Program-made: the position numbers and the translations under genes | Part shown: one piece after another, positions 8,916-16,878 of the stretch | How positions within the stretch are numbered: the first letter of the stretch is position 1 | Layout of the letters: each line of letters begins with the position of its first letter | Source of the DNA: a virus | Lineage: Duplodnaviria > Heunggongvirae > Uroviricota > Caudoviricetes | Strand: one strand, 5' to 3' | DNA length: 40,599 nucleotides | IMG/VR virus record: IMGVR_UViG_2537562012_000007 | Coordinates: 1-40,599 of that record | Notes under the pieces: generated by a model | The model's input: only the letters and a program-made list of their open reading frames with translations | What the model was told of the DNA's origin: nothing | Databases searched by the model: none

Positions 8916-9371
8916 GTGGCAAAAGTTTTTACACAAGAAGAGCGGGAAAAAATTAAAGGGCAGGTTGTTGAACTCGTACGCCAGAGTGGGCGCGAGACGT
9001 TACGACAACTGGAAACTAAAACTGGGGCAACAAGATATCTGATGAGCGTTCTGGCCAGAGAGCTGGTTGCCAGTGGCGATGTATACAACTCTGGTTACGG
9101 GTTATTCCCGTCTGAACAGGCGCGTAAGGACTGGCAAAATGCCCGTAAAAAGCTCTCAAGGGCAAAGCTGAAGAAACCATCTGCGGTTGATCCGGACCTT
9201 ATCTGGTCATTACCTGACGGAGAAATACGTCGCTACGACAGGCGTCAGAACATAATCTGTCGCGAGTGCCGGAAGAGTGAAGCTATGCAGCGTGTACTGG
9301 CATTTTACCAGAATGGTTTTCGAGAGACATTCGGTGAACAGGTTGTGCATGAGGGAAATCATGGCGCTTAG
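8916..9371 (+). CDS. Hypothetical protein (151 aa), replication module
   Basis: GTG start with AGGAGG 5 nt upstream; no recognisable domain. Confidence 0.5.
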   Translation: MAKVFTQEEREKIKGQVVELVRQSGRETLRQLETKTGATRYLMSVLARELVASGDVYNSGYGLFPSEQARKDWQNARKKLSRAKLKKPSAVDPDLIWSLPDGEIRRYDRRQNIICRECRKSEAMQRVLAFYQNGFRETFGEQVVHEGNHGA

Positions 9372-9799
9372 GCAATTGTGTAGACGCGTTGACGGTCGAA
9401 AGCATAGGAGGGTTGATTGATCGTTCTAGTTATGCTGTCAGAGCGAAAGCGCAGGAACTGGGTATCAATAGGATGTTAAGAGGGGGGGGGGGTATAACCA
9501 ATCAAAAAAACATCCGCAAAGCGATATTGAGCTAGTGCGGAAGCTTCATCAGTGTGGAGTTCCCCGCCGTGATATCGCTGTAAAACGCGAAATGTCCTTG
9601 GGCATGATTAATCAGTACGTTTATTTCGACAGGAGAGCGCATGAAGTTTGACATCTAGACAACTGGGGGAGCGCTGAAAACGTTCTTAATTGATGTTGGA
9701 TTCGCTTTACATACTGAACTGTTTGGCTGAAAGACACGGTAGTATCACCAATCAAGGTGCTTTTGATAAACGCTTGTGTGTTTGTTTTTTAATCCATTG

Positions 9800-9828
9800 T
9801 TGACAACTAGGTTAGTTTTCCATATCAT
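9800..9828 (+). promoter_or_regulatory. Sigma70-like promoter upstream of the ParA-like gene
   Basis: TTGACA (9800-9805), 17 bp spacer, TATCAT (9823-9828). Confidence 0.5.
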
Positions 9829-9858
9829 CAATAAAAGTGTAAAACTAATGGTGGCGAT

Positions 9859-10905
9859 ATGACTAGTGAATCAAATGTTAATGCTCTGATAGAGCGTCAA
9901 TTCGAAGTTGCTGACGGTAATGTAAGAAGTCTTAATTTGCCGAAATATGATAAATATACAGTATGTAATTTACGGGGAGGCATTGGTAAGACATCTTTAA
10001 CTTTTAATCTGTCATATTTGGCGGATAACGCATTAATCGTGGATACGTGCCCGCAAGGAAATTTATCATATTTTTTTGACAATAATTATGCATCTTCGTC
10101 TAGCACAACTGCAAATGACCTCTTAATGCCTTATTTTGTTCCAGGGCTTGGATTTGCAACGCGTGCTGCAAAGCTAGTATCATCAACTAATGCTTGGTTT
10201 GCGGGCAAGAATAACTATTTTATTCAATCTGATAGTCAACTTTATCTTCTACCTACGCAAATGGCGAATGCTCTGGCTCAAGCCAGAACAATTTCTGGGG
10301 CTACTCAGCAGGTTGTTATTGATACAATTCTTTTTTCTCTGAAGAAAGAAATAGCCAGAGAAATGGTTGAAACTGGTACTACAAAAGCGTTAATTGATAC
10401 ATCACCTTTTTTCTCTGGAGCGACGCATTTATCTTGGCATGCAACAGATGCTTTAATAGTTCCAGTGAGGACAGATCAGCAATCGATTAATTCATTAAGA
10501 TTACTTATTGATACTCTGACTAAACCAACATCAGAATTTAGAAAGATAATGCCGTCTGATGGCCATACACCAAAAATTCAGATGGTGGTTATTACCCATT
10601 GCGGATGGTCAACAGTGGCAGGAGCAAGGAATAAACCAAATCAACAGACAAAAATGTACATCGAAGCTGTAAGAGAGGTAATTCGACAAAATATTAGTAA
10701 TTTTACAACAGATGATCCTAATAATCACATTGTGATTCTTGATGATTTTCTGGGTAGTGGCAGAATGTCAAGTGCTAAGTCTAAACCATTAGAGTTGTTA
10801 AATCCAGGAGATGCAATGACTGTGAATAGAGTTAGGACATCCGTGAATTTATCTGTTAACAAAATAAAAAATGAATTAAAGTTCATTCACAACTCCATAT
10901 GGTAA
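9859..10905 (+). CDS. ParA/MinD-family P-loop ATPase with C-terminal extension
   Basis: Deviant Walker A CNLRGGIGKTSLT followed by DTCPQGN, as in ParA/Soj; 348 aa; markedly AT-rich codon usage by eye relative to the phage backbone. Confidence 0.75.
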   Translation: MTSESNVNALIERQFEVADGNVRSLNLPKYDKYTVCNLRGGIGKTSLTFNLSYLADNALIVDTCPQGNLSYFFDNNYASSSSTTANDLLMPYFVPGLGFATRAAKLVSSTNAWFAGKNNYFIQSDSQLYLLPTQMANALAQARTISGATQQVVIDTILFSLKKEIAREMVETGTTKALIDTSPFFSGATHLSWHATDALIVPVRTDQQSINSLRLLIDTLTKPTSEFRKIMPSDGHTPKIQMVVITHCGWSTVAGARNKPNQQTKMYIEAVREVIRQNISNFTTDDPNNHIVILDDFLGSGRMSSAKSKPLELLNPGDAMTVNRVRTSVNLSVNKIKNELKFIHNSIW

Positions 10906-11250
10906 ATGACATTTTATTTGAATAATCTGGATTGATAATCATTGTTACATTAATTGTTATTAATTCTAAATAATCCTATCGTTCTTCAGGATGAGATAAT
11001 TTATATTTATTTGTGTTGTGATTTTTTGAATTTATTTAGGTTTATGAACTGTTTTAGATGAAATGAATCATGAATACGAAATTGTTGCGGTACTGATAAC
11101 GAGGAAAGACCTCTGCGAGGTACGAATCCGAACCGGCCAGACGGAGGTCGCTGTCTTCACAGCTTACGAACCTGAGGAGTAAGAGACCAGGCGAGGGAGA
11201 AATCCCTCGCCACCTCTGATGTGTCAGGCATCCTCAACGCACCCGCACTT

Positions 11251-11273
11251 AACCCGCTTCGGCGGGGTTTTTA
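11251..11273 (+). terminator. Rho-independent terminator
   Basis: ACCCGC-TTCG-GCGGG stem-loop followed by a T-run. Confidence 0.6.
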
Positions 11274-11355
11274 TTGGTTGACAAAATTATGAATATGCAC
11301 CAATATCTTGGTTGACAAAAGTCGTTTTTTGCACGGATTAGGCGGAGAAGTGTCT

Positions 11356-11949
11356 ATGCAGAACCATCCATTCCCTTGGGAGTTCTTTCCTGAGTTAACA
11401 GAGGAGCGTTTAACCATTATAGCTGAGGAGTTGCTCAGGATACAGGATATTACTCATGAGTTATTGTCATCGCCCTATGATGATAATTACACTCGTGGTG
11501 GTTGTACATTTGGGCGTCAGCGGCAGGCGTTGCTACAAATGTGCGTACGAAAGACATATGACTGGTTAAGACTACTTAATCCTGGCATGGATCTTACGTT
11601 TTCAATTGGGAATGTCCCTATTCGTTTCTTTACTGATGACGCAGATAACCCCAAGAAACGCGGTTTTTTCAAAAGAAATGATGCTGATCGACTCTTCGAG
11701 TCAGAGGAGACTACTCCAACTATGCATCGCTTTGTGGTTGAAAAGCCTGAATTTGAAGGCGAGGGTGGTAGAGTCATTTTTAATGGCTATAACGTGTTTG
11801 GTGAGATCGTGTCAACTTGGACATATGGTGCGGACCGTGTTGTTATGCTGAACTCTGTCGATGATGTACCTCCAGCACCGGTACCTATCGAACTAGAACC
11901 TATCAGTGCGTCTAAGACTGAGAAGGAAAAGAAACAAAATAGCAAATAG
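11356..11949 (+). CDS. Hypothetical acidic protein (197 aa), accessory cassette
   Basis: ATG at 11356 with GGAG RBS; the TTG at 11308 used by the track lies inside a promoter-like repeat; no recognisable domain. Confidence 0.6.
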   Translation: MQNHPFPWEFFPELTEERLTIIAEELLRIQDITHELLSSPYDDNYTRGGCTFGRQRQALLQMCVRKTYDWLRLLNPGMDLTFSIGNVPIRFFTDDADNPKKRGFFKRNDADRLFESEETTPTMHRFVVEKPEFEGEGGRVIFNGYNVFGEIVSTWTYGADRVVMLNSVDDVPPAPVPIELEPISASKTEKEKKQNSK

Positions 11950-11959
11950 TGGGTGAAAT

Positions 11960-13081
11960 GTGTTTAACGGTACTAATTTAAGACTTGCTCGTCTGTATCA
12001 CGAGCTATCTCTGGAGCAGGTTGCTGAGAAGGTTGAAAAAACACGCCAGTATGTACAGCGACTGGAGTCTGGTTCAGCTACTCCATCCCCAGAGCTTATA
12101 AATAAATTAGCCGAGGTTTTGCGCGTGAAGCCCGCCTTTTTCGAAGGGCAGGAACATTCTCCTGTTAATGAAGAGATTGTACATTTTCGTAAACGCGCCT
12201 CGACAAGGATGTCAACGAAGCTATCAACACTCGCTAAGGCTGAGTTTTATCGTCGTTTTATTGATGTATTTGAAGATAACCTTAATTTGTCACCTGTTCG
12301 ATTTCCTGAATTTCGTGTCCATACACAAGAAGATATCGAGCGAGCGGCAGAAAAATGTCGTATTGAGTGGGGCTTAGGCTTTGGCCCAATTGAAAATATG
12401 ACTCGCCTTGCCGAGAAACTTGGGGCGTTTGTTACTTCATTTGACTCCGTTTCGGATGAAGTAGATGCACTGTCTGTTCCTCTACGAAGGCCTTTTATTG
12501 TTCGAAATACAGCTAAAAATTCACCTTGTAGGCAACGCTTTGATATTGCTCATGAGGTTGCCCATTTGATTCTTCATGAAGGAATTTCTACTGGGGATAG
12601 ATTAACTGAATCCCAGGCAAACCGTTTTGCCTCTGCTCTGTTGCTTCCCAGAACGTCGATGGCGAAATATTTTCCAAGACCTGTGGGGGGGAGGATAAAT
12701 TGGCAGGGACTAAGCCAATTTAAGTTGACATGGAAAGTAAGTAAGGCTGCCATTGTTTACAGGGCTCATCAATTAGGACTTTTGACTGATGAGCAGTACA
12801 GAACTGCATTTATGGGGTTGAAACGGAAAGGGGAAGCTATTGATGAAAAAGAAGATTATCTAATCCCTCATGAGCGTCCTGAGTTATTCCGTCGGGCTTT
12901 ATCGTTTTTATTTGAAGAGTTAGGATACGACCCACAGCGTATAGCTGATGAAATGGATATAGAAGTGGACATTTTTTATGAGTTAGTAGGAGATGATCTT
13001 CCTGCGGTTCATGAACTGCCAGGAAGTGGTGATGTTGTTTCACTACAATCTTACCGAACTCTTAGAGGCAAAATTCACTAG
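11960..13081 (+). CDS. XRE-family HTH fused to ImmA/IrrE-type zinc metallopeptidase
   Basis: N-terminal HTH (LRLARLYHELSLEQVAEKVEKTRQYVQRLESG), central HEVAHLILHE (HExxH) motif typical of ImmA/IrrE (COG2856-like); GTG start. Confidence 0.8.
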   Translation: MFNGTNLRLARLYHELSLEQVAEKVEKTRQYVQRLESGSATPSPELINKLAEVLRVKPAFFEGQEHSPVNEEIVHFRKRASTRMSTKLSTLAKAEFYRRFIDVFEDNLNLSPVRFPEFRVHTQEDIERAAEKCRIEWGLGFGPIENMTRLAEKLGAFVTSFDSVSDEVDALSVPLRRPFIVRNTAKNSPCRQRFDIAHEVAHLILHEGISTGDRLTESQANRFASALLLPRTSMAKYFPRPVGGRINWQGLSQFKLTWKVSKAAIVYRAHQLGLLTDEQYRTAFMGLKRKGEAIDEKEDYLIPHERPELFRRALSFLFEELGYDPQRIADEMDIEVDIFYELVGDDLPAVHELPGSGDVVSLQSYRTLRGKIH

Positions 13082-13085
13082 GCAT

Positions 13086-13108
13086 AACCCGCTTCGGCGG
13101 GTTTTTTG
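13086..13108 (+). terminator. Rho-independent terminator, near-identical to the one at 11251
   Basis: ACCCGC-TTCG-GCGGGT followed by TTTTTT; shares the core TAACCCGCTTCGGCGGG with 11249-11267. Confidence 0.65.
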
Positions 13109-13182
13109 TTTTACGTATTCTGGTTTACAATCTACAGGCCAGCCTGAACAACTGGCACCTGCTGCGCCAGCAGAGAAAACCG

Positions 13183-13455
13183 ATGGCGCACAATACCAAA
13201 CATCACAATTCTGATACCGACCTTGCCAGCTGGCACGGGCGGCGTTCTCATACATTCAAATATGACTGGTACCAGCATGCCCCATGCACTGAAGAACAGG
13301 CCGAATGGCTGATTCAGAACTACCGCAGGCGTGGGTACGACTTTCAGAAAGACCTCGGCCCTGACTTCCGACACTGGATAATTTCTGTCAGGCTCCCTTA
13401 TTCCGAACGCCCACCGCGTCCGTCCCGCACATTCCAGCAACGCATCTGGAGGTAA
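13183..13455 (+). CDS. Hypothetical protein (90 aa), nin-like region
   Basis: ATG-initiated ORF; no recognisable domain. Confidence 0.45.
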   Translation: MAHNTKHHNSDTDLASWHGRRSHTFKYDWYQHAPCTEEQAEWLIQNYRRRGYDFQKDLGPDFRHWIISVRLPYSERPPRPSRTFQQRIWR

Positions 13456-15243: not shown

Positions 15244-15630
15244 CTACTCGTTTGCTTGAGCTTTCGATTCGGCGTCAGATAAAGCATCAATACGAATATT
15301 TATGTTTTTTAATAGCTTATTGTCTAGATCGATAAGACATTGGTTGTAGTGCGCAATTTGGTCTGGTGTTAGGTTAGGGTTGGCCAGGCAGTTCGTGATG
15401 AATTTTCTGGCCGTTTTTATTTCCCTTTTCATTCTTACATCATTAAGCGTAGGCAAACCTATGTAAGCGATAAGAAGAATTACCACATGAGATAAGCCGA
15501 CAGCAGCTCCAGGCGCCAATGATTTGAAGAAGGCTAATTGAGGAAGCCAGTCAAAAAGGAAATTCAATCCCGCAGTGATAAGGGTGGTAAACCATGCCTG
15601 CATTGCCAGGTAGGATTTAGTGTTCGCCAT
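15244..15630 (-). CDS. Predicted membrane protein (128 aa; two hydrophobic helices), moron operon gene 3
   Basis: GGAAGGTGA RBS; start overlaps the upstream gene stop; hydrophobic segments FTTLITAGLNFLF and GLSHVVILLIAYIGL. Confidence 0.6.
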   Translation of the reverse strand: MANTKSYLAMQAWFTTLITAGLNFLFDWLPQLAFFKSLAPGAAVGLSHVVILLIAYIGLPTLNDVRMKREIKTARKFITNCLANPNLTPDQIAHYNQCLIDLDNKLLKNINIRIDALSDAESKAQANE

Positions 15631-15876
15631 TCACCTTCCTGCACTTGCTTCGTTGCGAGTTTTGAGTTCGCGTAGCAGTAGCGCCAACTCTTCTGCGTCA
15701 TTTTCGTTTCTAACGCTGACTTTCCTTTTAGCGGTTCTGCCTTCAGGATCGGTGTAGGTTAGTTCAATATACGCATTCGGCTTTACCCAAACCAAGAACC
15801 TAAGCACAGCATATCTGACCGTCGCTGCGACAGCCATGAATACAGTGATGTAAAGCATAATGCTTAGGATTGACAT
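15631..15876 (-). CDS. Predicted small membrane protein (81 aa; N-terminal TM), moron operon gene 2
   Basis: AGGAAA RBS; N-terminal hydrophobic helix ILSIMLYITVFMAVAATV. Confidence 0.55.
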   Translation of the reverse strand: MSILSIMLYITVFMAVAATVRYAVLRFLVWVKPNAYIELTYTDPEGRTAKRKVSVRNENDAEELALLLRELKTRNEASAGR

Positions 15877-15879
15877 GAT

Positions 15880-16758
15880 TTAAAGTAGTTTCCTATCTGC
15901 CGCCGCTCTGTGGCGTATAACCTTAGTAATACTATAGCGTGGTTTAGACAGCGCGCCATTTGTTTCTTTTGTTGTTTCTGTCAGTTCTACAACAAAAAGA
16001 TCACCCTTACAGAATGCTGCTTGGTTGTGTTCAACCCGTTCAAGAAAAGCCTCATCTTTCATAGATGCACTAACTTCTTCGCCATTTGGCAGGATGATAT
16101 CCCAGCTTTTGCCTTGCTTGAATCGAACATTAGCAAAATGTACATTAGCTTGGCGTGTCGTTACGTGCGTTTTCTCGACAAAGGTGGATTTTGCAGTTTT
16201 AAAACTTACTGCTTCAGCTTGCGTCACCCTGACTACCTTATGCTTCTGCTGTGAAACTGAGAACGTGGATGGTTTTTCAGTCTGCAGGGGTTTATAGATT
16301 AATTTATCCAGTTCTTTTCGGATGATTGGACTGGTTATTAATTTTTGAATGTCGTTACTGCATTTAACCTTCTCACCATCCACTTCGATTTCTGCTGTAT
16401 CTTTTTGTTCATCGACGACAATGGAGCTGATTTTACGCCCTTTGAGCCATTCGATTATCCCGAGTACGCCACCTGCGGCAACTCCACCACCTGCAACGAG
16501 GCCAAGGGCGTTAATAGTTTTTATGCTCCCCATCACAGCAACAAGCAAAGTAAATGAACCTTCTTTTGTTGCCTTGATGTTGACTTTCGGCTCTGCTGTT
16601 TCGCCATTAATTATTTTTTCGGCGTGTTCAATCAGGGCACTAAGAGAGGTTAAGGCTTCGCCTAATGTTTTCGCGTCGATCTGATTATCTGCGTATGCCT
16701 CTCCACCGTAGGCAATTTCGATTTCTGTTATTGGCATGTTTTCGAGTTGCTGCGTCAT
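15880..16758 (-). CDS. Hypothetical protein (about 292 aa) with central glycine-zipper hydrophobic segment, moron operon gene 1
   Basis: Likely start is the ATG at 16758 (AGGA about 10 nt upstream); the track uses a GTG at 16791; central LGLVAGGGVAAGGVLGIIEW segment. Confidence 0.6.
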   Translation of the reverse strand: MTQQLENMPITEIEIAYGGEAYADNQIDAKTLGEALTSLSALIEHAEKIINGETAEPKVNIKATKEGSFTLLVAVMGSIKTINALGLVAGGGVAAGGVLGIIEWLKGRKISSIVVDEQKDTAEIEVDGEKVKCSNDIQKLITSPIIRKELDKLIYKPLQTEKPSTFSVSQQKHKVVRVTQAEAVSFKTAKSTFVEKTHVTTRQANVHFANVRFKQGKSWDIILPNGEEVSASMKDEAFLERVEHNQAAFCKGDLFVVELTETTKETNGALSKPRYSITKVIRHRAAADRKLL

Positions 16759-16878
16759 CAAAAGCATCCTTTGCGCAAGAGAAATAGCCACAGGATACAG
16801 ATAATTATGAAAAAATCACTAACGCGTACGCAAAAACTATCTTAATCTGTTAAGAGTGGTCGCTTCGCCACACAACTT

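Follow-up and report, generated by a model that had tools for sequence, protein, structure and literature searches.

Can three neighbouring genes that share a strand and an unusual base composition be taken as one functional unit? The question is raised by a 40,599-nucleotide stretch of viral DNA (Caudoviricetes; IMG/VR record IMGVR_UViG_2537562012_000007, positions 1 to 40,599), which we refer to as the window. It corresponds to a lambdoid (Rac/Qin-like) E. coli prophage, and its variable region contains three open reading frames (ORFs), all on the plus strand: gene 1 (9859-10905, 348 amino acids (aa), labelled by PGAP as ParA family protein WP_000200161.1), gene 2 (11356-11949, 197 aa, WP_001179381.1) and gene 3 (11960-13081, 373 aa, identical to WP_000481765.1). 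An initial annotation, made from the sequence alone, had located these genes correctly and had read them as a single, previously undescribed defence cassette in which a regulator encoded by gene 3 would control an orphan ParA-like NTPase and a small protein. With considerable confidence, we interpret the interval differently, as two independent accessory insertions with a dead hokD gene between them: genes 2 and 3 would be the known toxin-antitoxin defence system RosmerTA, and gene 1 a separately acquired, solo ATPase of the ParA/MinD fold.

Genes 2 and 3 as a RosmerTA module

Gene 2 matches the PADLOC model of the toxin RmrT (PDLC03929, E 7e-93) over model positions 1-197 of 198, as well as phrog_5786 (E 1e-92), and gene 3 matches the model of the antitoxin RmrA (PDLC03943, E 4e-201) over positions 1-368 of 370. 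Judged from these profiles, the two genes (hereafter rmrT and rmrA, together rmrTA) are a RosmerTA toxin-antitoxin (TA) defence module, that is, a system that already has a name. The initial annotation, which had not recognised the gene combination and had itself pointed to homology searches as the way to find out, is therefore overturned on this point by the Pfam and PADLOC results. RosmerTA was defined as a Zn-peptidase antitoxin accompanied by a toxin of unknown function, and the RosmerTA of E. coli OLC-716 was verified as phage-protective, a deletion of rmrA not being obtained (Millman et al., 2022). RmrA partners many different toxins, and the RosmerTA of Gordonia phage Kita protects against phages as well (Ernits et al.). 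The expectation of an inducible anti-phage or abortive-infection module was thus right in kind for genes 2 and 3, and wrong for gene 1.

The fusion of an XRE-type helix-turn-helix (HTH) to an ImmA/IrrE peptidase that had been recognised in gene 3 corresponds to the Pfam domains HTH_3 (residues 7-61, 1.5e-12) and Peptidase_M78 (ImmA/IrrE; residues 151-269, 8e-17), the HExxH motif being HEVAH at residues 198-202. RmrT is a small acidic protein, as had been described (pI 5.0); its ATG start is that of PGAP, and in the list of open reading frames the ORF can be extended to a TTG at 11308. Searches of RmrT against Pfam, NCBIfam and PDB sequences gave no match, and its AlphaFold2 (AF2) model (pLDDT 81.8) hints, weakly, at a fold like that of restriction endonucleases, in which no canonical PD-(D/E)xK motif was verified. 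With 80 clusters, drawn from Enterobacterales and Aeromonas and every one of them labelled hypothetical, the RmrT family is small. The two genes are separated by 10 bp (11949 to 11960) and share a strand, a promoter and a terminator. In 33 of 35 IMG/VR loci the gene for RmrA comes directly after that for RmrT, one of the two exceptions being cut by the end of its contig, and the identities of the two proteins co-vary across these loci.

The antitoxin has a published genetic record. WP_000481765.1 is E101_02644, the antidote of the prophage toxin E101_02645 (WP_001179380.1), and this toxin-antitoxin pair renders clpP essential in E. coli E101 (Rousset et al., bioRxiv 10.1101/2020.05.25.114553). 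Suppressors of clpP essentiality had either lost the prophage (3/4 clones) or acquired the toxin substitution T46S, and when the pair was moved to K-12, clpP knock-down became harmful unless the toxin carried T46S. The same study found the E. coli pair to be 33% and 42% identical to vmi480 and vmi470 of Vibrio mimicus, respectively. vmi480 is a 198-aa toxin, lethal alone in E. coli and rescued by its antidote vmi470, a 362-aa HTH and Zn-peptidase protein, and the pair has served for counter-selection (Luo et al., 2015; PMC4671572). We found that T46 falls within the most conserved motif of the toxin, D42-D-N-Y-T46-R47 (DDNYTR), in an alignment of 56 family members, a placement that is an addition of the present study. 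The locus ties the named RosmerTA family to genetics in which depletion of ClpP unleashes the toxin and T46S inactivates it.

The rmrTA unit (approximately 11276-13107) has its own promoter and terminator. The promoter/operator region (11277-11334) contains two GTTGACAAA-N10-TTGCAC units, at 11277-11300 and 11311-11334. Unit 1 supplies the -35 hexamer (TTGACA, 11278-11283), which is followed at 17-nt spacing by the -10 hexamer (CAATAT, 11301-11306), and unit 2 covers the expected transcription start. The units, 34 bp apart, are invariant in 16 loci whose RmrT proteins are 45-100% identical, and the DNA around them is unconserved. These repeats are candidate RmrA operators, from which we infer that the operon is autorepressed, and the conserved dual operator can be tested directly for RmrA binding. 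In the mechanism that we propose, the HTH of RmrA would bind both units, over the -35 and the transcription start, and so repress rmrTA, and RmrA would also hold RmrT inactive, aided by ClpP-dependent proteolysis. Phage infection, or any other loss of this control, would then free RmrT and arrest the cell before the phage completes its cycle, which would amount to abortive infection.

Alternatively, the main role of rmrTA could be addiction, by which the prophage would be stabilised, rather than anti-phage immunity. This agrees with the fact that three of the four clpP suppressor clones lost the entire prophage, as if the module penalised certain host states, and with the location of the Vibrio homologue on a mobilisable island; moreover, our literature search found no paper in which the RmrT subtype of the window was tested against phage. 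However, RosmerTA modules with the same antitoxin architecture are phage-protective in OLC-716 (Millman et al., 2022) and in Kita (Ernits et al.), and the slot between hokD and a DUF968 gene where rmrTA resides is occupied by other TA or defence-type cargo in related prophages. Addiction and immunity are also not mutually exclusive, and we regard a role mainly in addiction as a possibility to be kept in mind, if a somewhat doubtful one.

Two insertions around a broken hokD gene

The idea of a single three-gene cassette is contradicted by the DNA that divides gene 1 from rmrT. A remnant of a hokD (Hok/Gef) pseudogene lies at 11081-11182 on the plus strand, reduced to its C-terminal 33 codons and labelled by PGAP as 'Hok/Gef family protein, incomplete, missing N-terminus'. 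The segment 11081-11272 as a whole is the 3' part of hokD/gef, including the 3' untranslated region (UTR) and terminator, and is 96-98% identical to many phage and E. coli prophage copies. In an alignment with intact hokD, the reading frame is broken internally, AT-rich DNA having taken the place of its first 18 codons and of everything upstream, so that there is no complete hok frame with an upstream control region, the upstream homology ending at 11081. An Rfam scan of 9300-13400 (E up to 1) recovered no hok/sok or other RNA family; matches to rsmX and isrK were sub-threshold, produced by the terminator hairpin, and were discarded. The hok 3'-UTR terminator (11245-11272, stem 11253-11266 plus T-run) also stands between gene 1 and rmrTA.

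Base composition points in the same direction. The AT-richness that the initial annotation had noted by eye is confirmed for both pieces, the GC content being 0.345 in the gene-1 unit (9700-11080), which is the minimum among 1.4-kb stretches of the entire 40.6-kb window (mean 0.505, sd 0.05), and 0.431 in rmrTA, within the lowest 6% of windows, against 0.51-0.53 in the flanks beside the interval. The hokD stretch (11081-11272) has a GC content of 0.562, and three such different values within 3.3 kb argue against a single origin.

The borders of the two insertions can be delineated by comparison with related prophages. On the left, homology to phage Tritos and to strain Ec-U5 breaks off at 9311, close to where the DUF977 gene ends, and restarts at 11081; this gap, together with the broken hokD, indicates that gene 1 came within a 1.8-kb replacement that destroyed hokD. 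The left junction segment (9312-9699, plus strand) was found only in the gene-1-bearing prophage lineage. It contains a 48-aa ORF (9389-9535) with a run of 13 G (~9482-9494), and the stretch 9434-9635 is weakly similar (68%) to a 'DNA-binding protein' gene of another prophage (L004, 1904-2221). The ORF is probably what remains, after a frameshift, of a gene for a small DNA-binding protein, at the left margin of the insertion that brought gene 1. On the other side of gene 1, the AT-rich 3' tail of the insertion (10906-11080) runs up to the hokD junction at 11080/11081, and a terminator search in this tail detected none belonging to gene 1 itself. The gene-1 unit (~9700-11080) is best seen as a separately acquired, very AT-rich single-gene insertion that deleted the 5' half of hokD.

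The rmrTA unit has a different footprint. A TAACCCGCTTCGGCGGG and T-run element is found on both sides of it, at 11251-11272 and 13084-13107; the left copy belongs to the hok terminator and the right copy to the terminator of rmrTA (13083-13110, stem 13086-13103 plus T-run), and the initial annotation had likewise noted terminators. Prophages without rmrTA (L118) have a single copy of the terminator followed directly by the DUF968-side sequence, which represents an empty site. The duplicated terminator and the single-copy empty site together are the footprint of a self-contained accessory insertion at a terminator.

The initial annotation had placed the cassette where a helicase-loader gene should be. 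This does not hold, as the relatives that lack these cargo genes (phage Tritos, strain Ec-U5) have the same pair of replisome-organiser and DUF977 genes and no DnaC-type loader, and the cargo sits downstream, in a variable slot between hokD and DUF968. Its other proposal, that the region is a hotspot for accessory genes, is well founded, since this slot holds varied cargo in related prophages and is a recombination hotspot for TA-type cargo. In phage Tritos the slot (L001, 5269-7025) contains another toxin/HTH-ImmA pair, whose antitoxin is 32% identical to RmrA of the window, and an unrelated minus-strand gene takes the place of gene 1. Other E. coli prophages and genomes have the Doc toxin or hypothetical genes in the slot.

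Conservation of the gene neighbourhood, which had been suggested as a check, shows that gene 1 and rmrTA each occur without the other. Among 5426 complete E. coli genomes, gene 1 DNA is present in 14 and rmrTA DNA in 23. The nine genomes that have rmrTA and lack gene 1 include three that were inspected, and all three have an intact hokD with varied genes upstream. rmrTA is also found without gene 1 in at least 25 viral loci. Conversely, an IMG/VR contig (L070) has gene 1 and the same hokD junction, followed past the terminator by different DNA and no rmrTA, and the homologues of gene 1 in the other sampled taxa never adjoin rmrTA.

These data bear directly on the possibility of one inducible defence system made up of the three genes, with the HTH-peptidase in control of both the ParA-like NTPase and a small effector. 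Such a system would fit the adjacency and common strand of the genes, the AT-richness of both pieces, and the observation that rmrTA always lies downstream of gene 1 in complete E. coli genomes. However, the 14 co-occurring loci are 99.9% identical to one another and therefore count as one lineage; a hokD pseudogene and an intrinsic terminator intervene; rmrTA has its own conserved promoter and operators; and either unit is found without the other, gene 1 standing without rmrTA in L070 and in every other sampled taxon. We consider a single system highly improbable. Given the dead hokD and the terminator between them, their separate occurrence, and homologues that are never beside rmrTA, the layout of a regulator controlling an orphan NTPase is an accident of adjacency, and gene 1 is not part of the RosmerTA system.

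Further downstream, just past the Q antiterminator gene, three minus-strand genes (15244-16791; 128, 81 and 303 aa) have a GC content of 0.41-0.45. The 303-aa protein has no Pfam domain and matches the PADLOC defence candidate PDC-S42 (3e-53). This trio may be a second, separate piece of defence-type cargo.

Gene 1, a solo ATPase with a conserved inverted repeat

Gene 1 contains the motifs that had been quoted for it, CNLRGGIGKTS at residue 36 and DTCPQGN at residue 62. In its Walker A (RGGIGKTS), Arg39 occupies the position of the signature Lys, and this Arg is invariant across the family (NLRGGIGKTS); with respect to the deviant Walker A of ParABS systems (KGGxxK[ST]), the fold and the P-loop are present, whereas the signature Lys is an invariant Arg. 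Sequence matches are limited to Pfam AAA_31 (8e-10) and the 'ParA-like' phrog_164 (3e-30, residues 32-334), with Soj being marginal (E 6e-4). The AF2 model is of good quality (pLDDT 87.8, pTM 0.89), and its top Foldseek matches are McdA, Soj, pNOB8 ParA and ParA2, with ~320 aligned columns, E ~1e-9 and a target TM of ~0.7. On this model, gene 1 has a predicted ParA/MinD fold throughout, and the C-terminal extension of about 90 aa that had been suggested is not there: the extra length consists of an N-terminal helix, internal insertions and a terminal helix. Weak PADLOC matches to PRTase_III-A and ShosT (E 1e-4 to 2e-3, residues 262-311) were rejected, as the IVILDDFLGSGR segment falls within the ParA-aligned part of the model and is probably part of the ParA core.

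The promoter of gene 1 had also been correctly identified. It lies at 9800-9828 on the plus strand (-35 TTGACA, 9800-9805; 17-nt spacer; -10 TATCAT, 9823-9828) and, matching the consensus at 11 of 12 positions, is the best in a region where promoter-like sites as such are not above chance (8 found, 9.1 expected). Around the -10 lies an inverted repeat (9811-9849) with arms GTTAGTTTTCCAT (9811-9823) and GTGTAAAACTAAT (9837-9849), which we regard as a candidate operator. Within the window, the motif occurs as an inverted pair only at the gene 1 promoter, and matches elsewhere are at chance level.

A 13-bp inverted-repeat consensus, ATTAGTTTTCCAT ... ATGGAAAACTAAT, is common to the upstream regions of gene 1 homologues from unrelated taxa, and was recognised in L014, L119, L121, L124, L125, L129, L132, L134, L140 and L151, among other loci. 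In the homologues the repeat brackets promoter-like hexamers, and its second arm abuts the ribosome-binding site. In the loci used for derivation, the repeat core was observed 25 times upstream of gene 1 homologues against 0.66 expected. When it was applied unchanged to GTDB loci that were fetched later and independently, it was observed 24 times against 1.85 expected (P ~7e-19). The repeat pair beats 99% of control windows in 24 of 46 distinct upstream regions, and other loci have co-varying variants of the repeat, of the TTCCAC or TTCCGC type. The arms are spaced 26-27 or 46-47 bp apart, values that differ by two helical turns. As promoter-like hexamers sit between the arms, a DNA operator is likelier than an RNA hairpin, and since nothing but the gene is conserved at these loci, the protein that it encodes is the most economical candidate for the binding factor. 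The N-terminal helix of close-family members has a near-invariant R13 and an invariant Q14; a subfamily that is 35% identical has N-H in place of R13-Q14 and lacks the operator motif. Taken together, these sequence patterns suggest that gene 1 is self-regulated via the inverted repeat.

The family is small, compact and isolated in sequence space, and appears scattered over many phyla. It comprises 706 clusters at 90% identity, and the best 120 of the 706 are all more than 60% identical. Among 1.84 billion representatives at 50% identity, 179 are related at E 1e-3 and 30 at 1e-30. A pattern-based scan found members in 34 of 100,044 GTDB species genomes, with record titles that name Clostridia, Bacteroidetes, Planctomycetes (Thermoguttaceae), Chloroflexi, Leptospira, Bdellovibrionales, Desulfovibrionaceae, Zetaproteobacteria, Magnetococcales, Vibrio and Pseudomonas, these loci being mostly contigs of metagenome-assembled genomes (MAGs), some very short, so that each taxon label depends on the quality of the binning. 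Identity above 50-60% and a shared cis element are maintained within the family over a range that extends from Enterobacteria to MAGs assigned to Clostridia, Bacteroidetes, Planctomycetes and Desulfovibrio. A 3.9-kb contig labelled as a Clostridia MAG (L119, SAAB01000110.1) has a homologue 89% identical to E. coli gene 1, with the same promoter/operator layout, which represents either a very recent cross-phylum transfer or a binning error.

The carriers are plasmids, integrative elements, prophages and single-gene islets. In Enterobacter, the homologue is the first gene of an integrated conjugative element adjoining proA; in Yersinia it lies beside a resolvase on plasmid-like contigs, in a gut metagenome amid conjugation genes, and in Massilia beside an integrase. 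In Burkholderia, Desulfovibrio and a further locus (L032), it stands solo between housekeeping genes or by small TA pairs. No partner recurs: among 57 neighbours from 15 non-redundant loci, no Pfam or PADLOC family appears more than twice, and neither tblastx of the flanks nor BLAST clustering of the neighbours found a conserved small ORF. We conclude from the lack of a recurrent neighbour or small ORF that gene 1 is a true solo gene. The largest neighbour cluster, CI/LexA-type phage repressors, was set aside as generic; it lies beside the distant 35%-identical subfamily. This subfamily (IMG/VR loci L084-L117) keeps N[LF]RGGIGK and adjoins CI/LexA-type repressor genes in many temperate-phage contigs.

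Gene 1 could also be a relic of a plasmid or integrative element, an ordinary ATPase for partition that has lost its ParB and centromere and is functionless in the prophage. Its ParA fold and P-loop motifs are those of such a gene, and neither ParB nor parS is nearby: in agreement with the initial annotation, the window contains no gene for a ParB or other centromere-binding partner, and a search for centromere-like arrays at 9540-11090 found only short repeats at chance level. However, the family is solo everywhere it was sampled and not in this prophage only, it is strongly constrained (alignment columns averaging 66% identity across phyla), and the locus used for comparison has the ORF unbroken and identical. 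The cis element is likewise retained, and the relatives on Aeromonas plasmids exist besides a complete ParA/ParG pair. A functionless leftover is, in our view, quite unlikely.

Those Aeromonas plasmids are the only ones found to carry the family (5 of 72,556 plasmid records), and they carry the ordinary ParA/ParG pair as well. One of them, the 5.9-kb Aeromonas veronii plasmid pWP8-S18-ESBL-11_2 (L011), has no annotated Rep and contains about eight 11-bp direct repeats (TGTCCCnnTTn; 2902-2989) upstream of its gene 1 homologue, which could be iterons or a centromere. As a centromere or iterons of the gene 1 family the array was rejected, being absent from the other loci.

A further possibility is that gene 1 alone is a determinant of defence or of conflict between elements, for example by interfering with the way in which incoming plasmids or phages replicate or are partitioned. 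A solo gene scattered over distant phyla at more than 60% identity, rare on plasmids, and found in accessory slots near HicA, ParE, an AAA_15/DUF2813 protein, RhuM/PDC-S05 and, here, RosmerTA, would be consistent with such a role. On the other hand, gene 1 matches no PADLOC model above noise and has no effector domain, the ParA fold extending over the whole protein; its defence-gene neighbours are not recurrent; and many of its contexts have an extrachromosomal stage, for which a maintenance role is simpler. We keep a conflict determinant as a live, if unlikely, rival.

Our best guess, from sequence patterns, is that gene 1 would regulate its own promoter through the inverted repeat around it and would encode an ATPase that positions or maintains mobile DNA, carried in the present prophage as cargo and outside RosmerTA. 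A more novel reading, to which we give a rather low probability, is that its family would be a kind of ParA/MinD ATPase not described before, in which a single gene forms a self-regulating module and the protein recognises the ATTAGTTTTCCAT / ATGGAAAACTAAT repeat at its own promoter. If this is true and the operator doubles as a cargo site, one protein would suffice for anchoring or partitioning DNA, or else gene 1 would be a new gene of element conflict.

Several points weigh against our reading of the interval as a whole. Gene 1 lies beside rmrTA in 14 of the 14 complete E. coli genomes that bear it, and sequence alone leaves room for a functional interaction of the two within that single lineage. 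A literature search on the ParA-like family of gene 1 found no paper. Its near-absence from plasmid records and from phage databases, where the records searched held no close relative, is unexpected for a routine partition gene. For rmrTA, binding of RmrA to the operators, the role of its peptidase and the triggering by phage are proposals, and phage protection is known for RosmerTA with other toxins, that of OLC-716 being unrelated in sequence to the RmrT of the window.

The value of these results is mainly corrective. A candidate new defence system turns out to be a catalogued RosmerTA with an unrelated neighbour, and as a new defence system the finding is already explained; that genes adjoin one another within a prophage hotspot is no evidence that they work as a unit. 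What has been exposed, and remains the point of interest, is a family of solo ParA-like ATPases, uncharacterised and spread across phyla, that has a conserved candidate operator and makes a cheap and well-defined experimental target.

Comparison with known systems

Relative to hokD (relF) of the Qin prophage, which encodes a type I toxin of the Hok/Gef family, the copy in the window is truncated. Gene 1 shares the fold of Soj/ParA, McdA and MinD and has their P-loop, switch and Walker B motifs. It differs from them in the Arg that replaces the signature Lys, in its length (348 aa as opposed to ~250), and in having no partner of the ParB, McdB or MinE type. The type Ia ParA proteins (P1 ParA, F SopA) may resemble it in one inferred respect, a ParA-type ATPase with a palindromic operator on its own promoter, but they have an N-terminal HTH domain of ~100 aa and ParB as co-repressor, and gene 1 has only a 30-residue N-terminal helix.

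As regards rmrTA, the verified RosmerTA of OLC-716 has the same layout, a two-gene operon with the toxin gene upstream of an XRE HTH and Zn-peptidase antitoxin of ~370 aa, and its RmrA is 31% identical to that of the window over 311 residues (E 2e-38). Its toxin, by contrast, is unrelated to the RmrT of the window by BLASTP, which is consistent with the pairing of RmrA with many toxins (Ernits et al.). The E101_02645/E101_02644 pair is also prophage-borne, has the toxin gene first and shares the antitoxin accession; the two toxins (WP_001179380.1 and WP_001179381.1), compared by accession only, have neighbouring numbers. The vmi480/vmi470 pair of MGIVmi1 likewise has the toxin upstream of an HTH-peptidase antidote, but it is a distant orthologue and belongs to a mobilisable genomic island and not to a prophage.

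PD-lambda-2 (Vassallo et al.) was considered as the named system and rejected, as it has three components (HigB, an HTH-peptidase and a P4 antitoxin-like protein) and a HigB toxin. Finally, ImmR/ImmA of ICEBs1, DdrO/IrrE and CapH/CapP of CBASS, which had been invoked as models for gene 3, also combine an M78 HExxH peptidase with an XRE-type HTH, and RmrA does match the PADLOC models capP (3e-17) and capH (5e-10), the full-length RmrA models matching far better. In those systems, however, repressor and peptidase are separate proteins and the output is the de-repression of other genes, whereas RmrA is not a two-protein switch: its HTH and peptidase are fused in one 373-aa polypeptide that is paired with a toxin.

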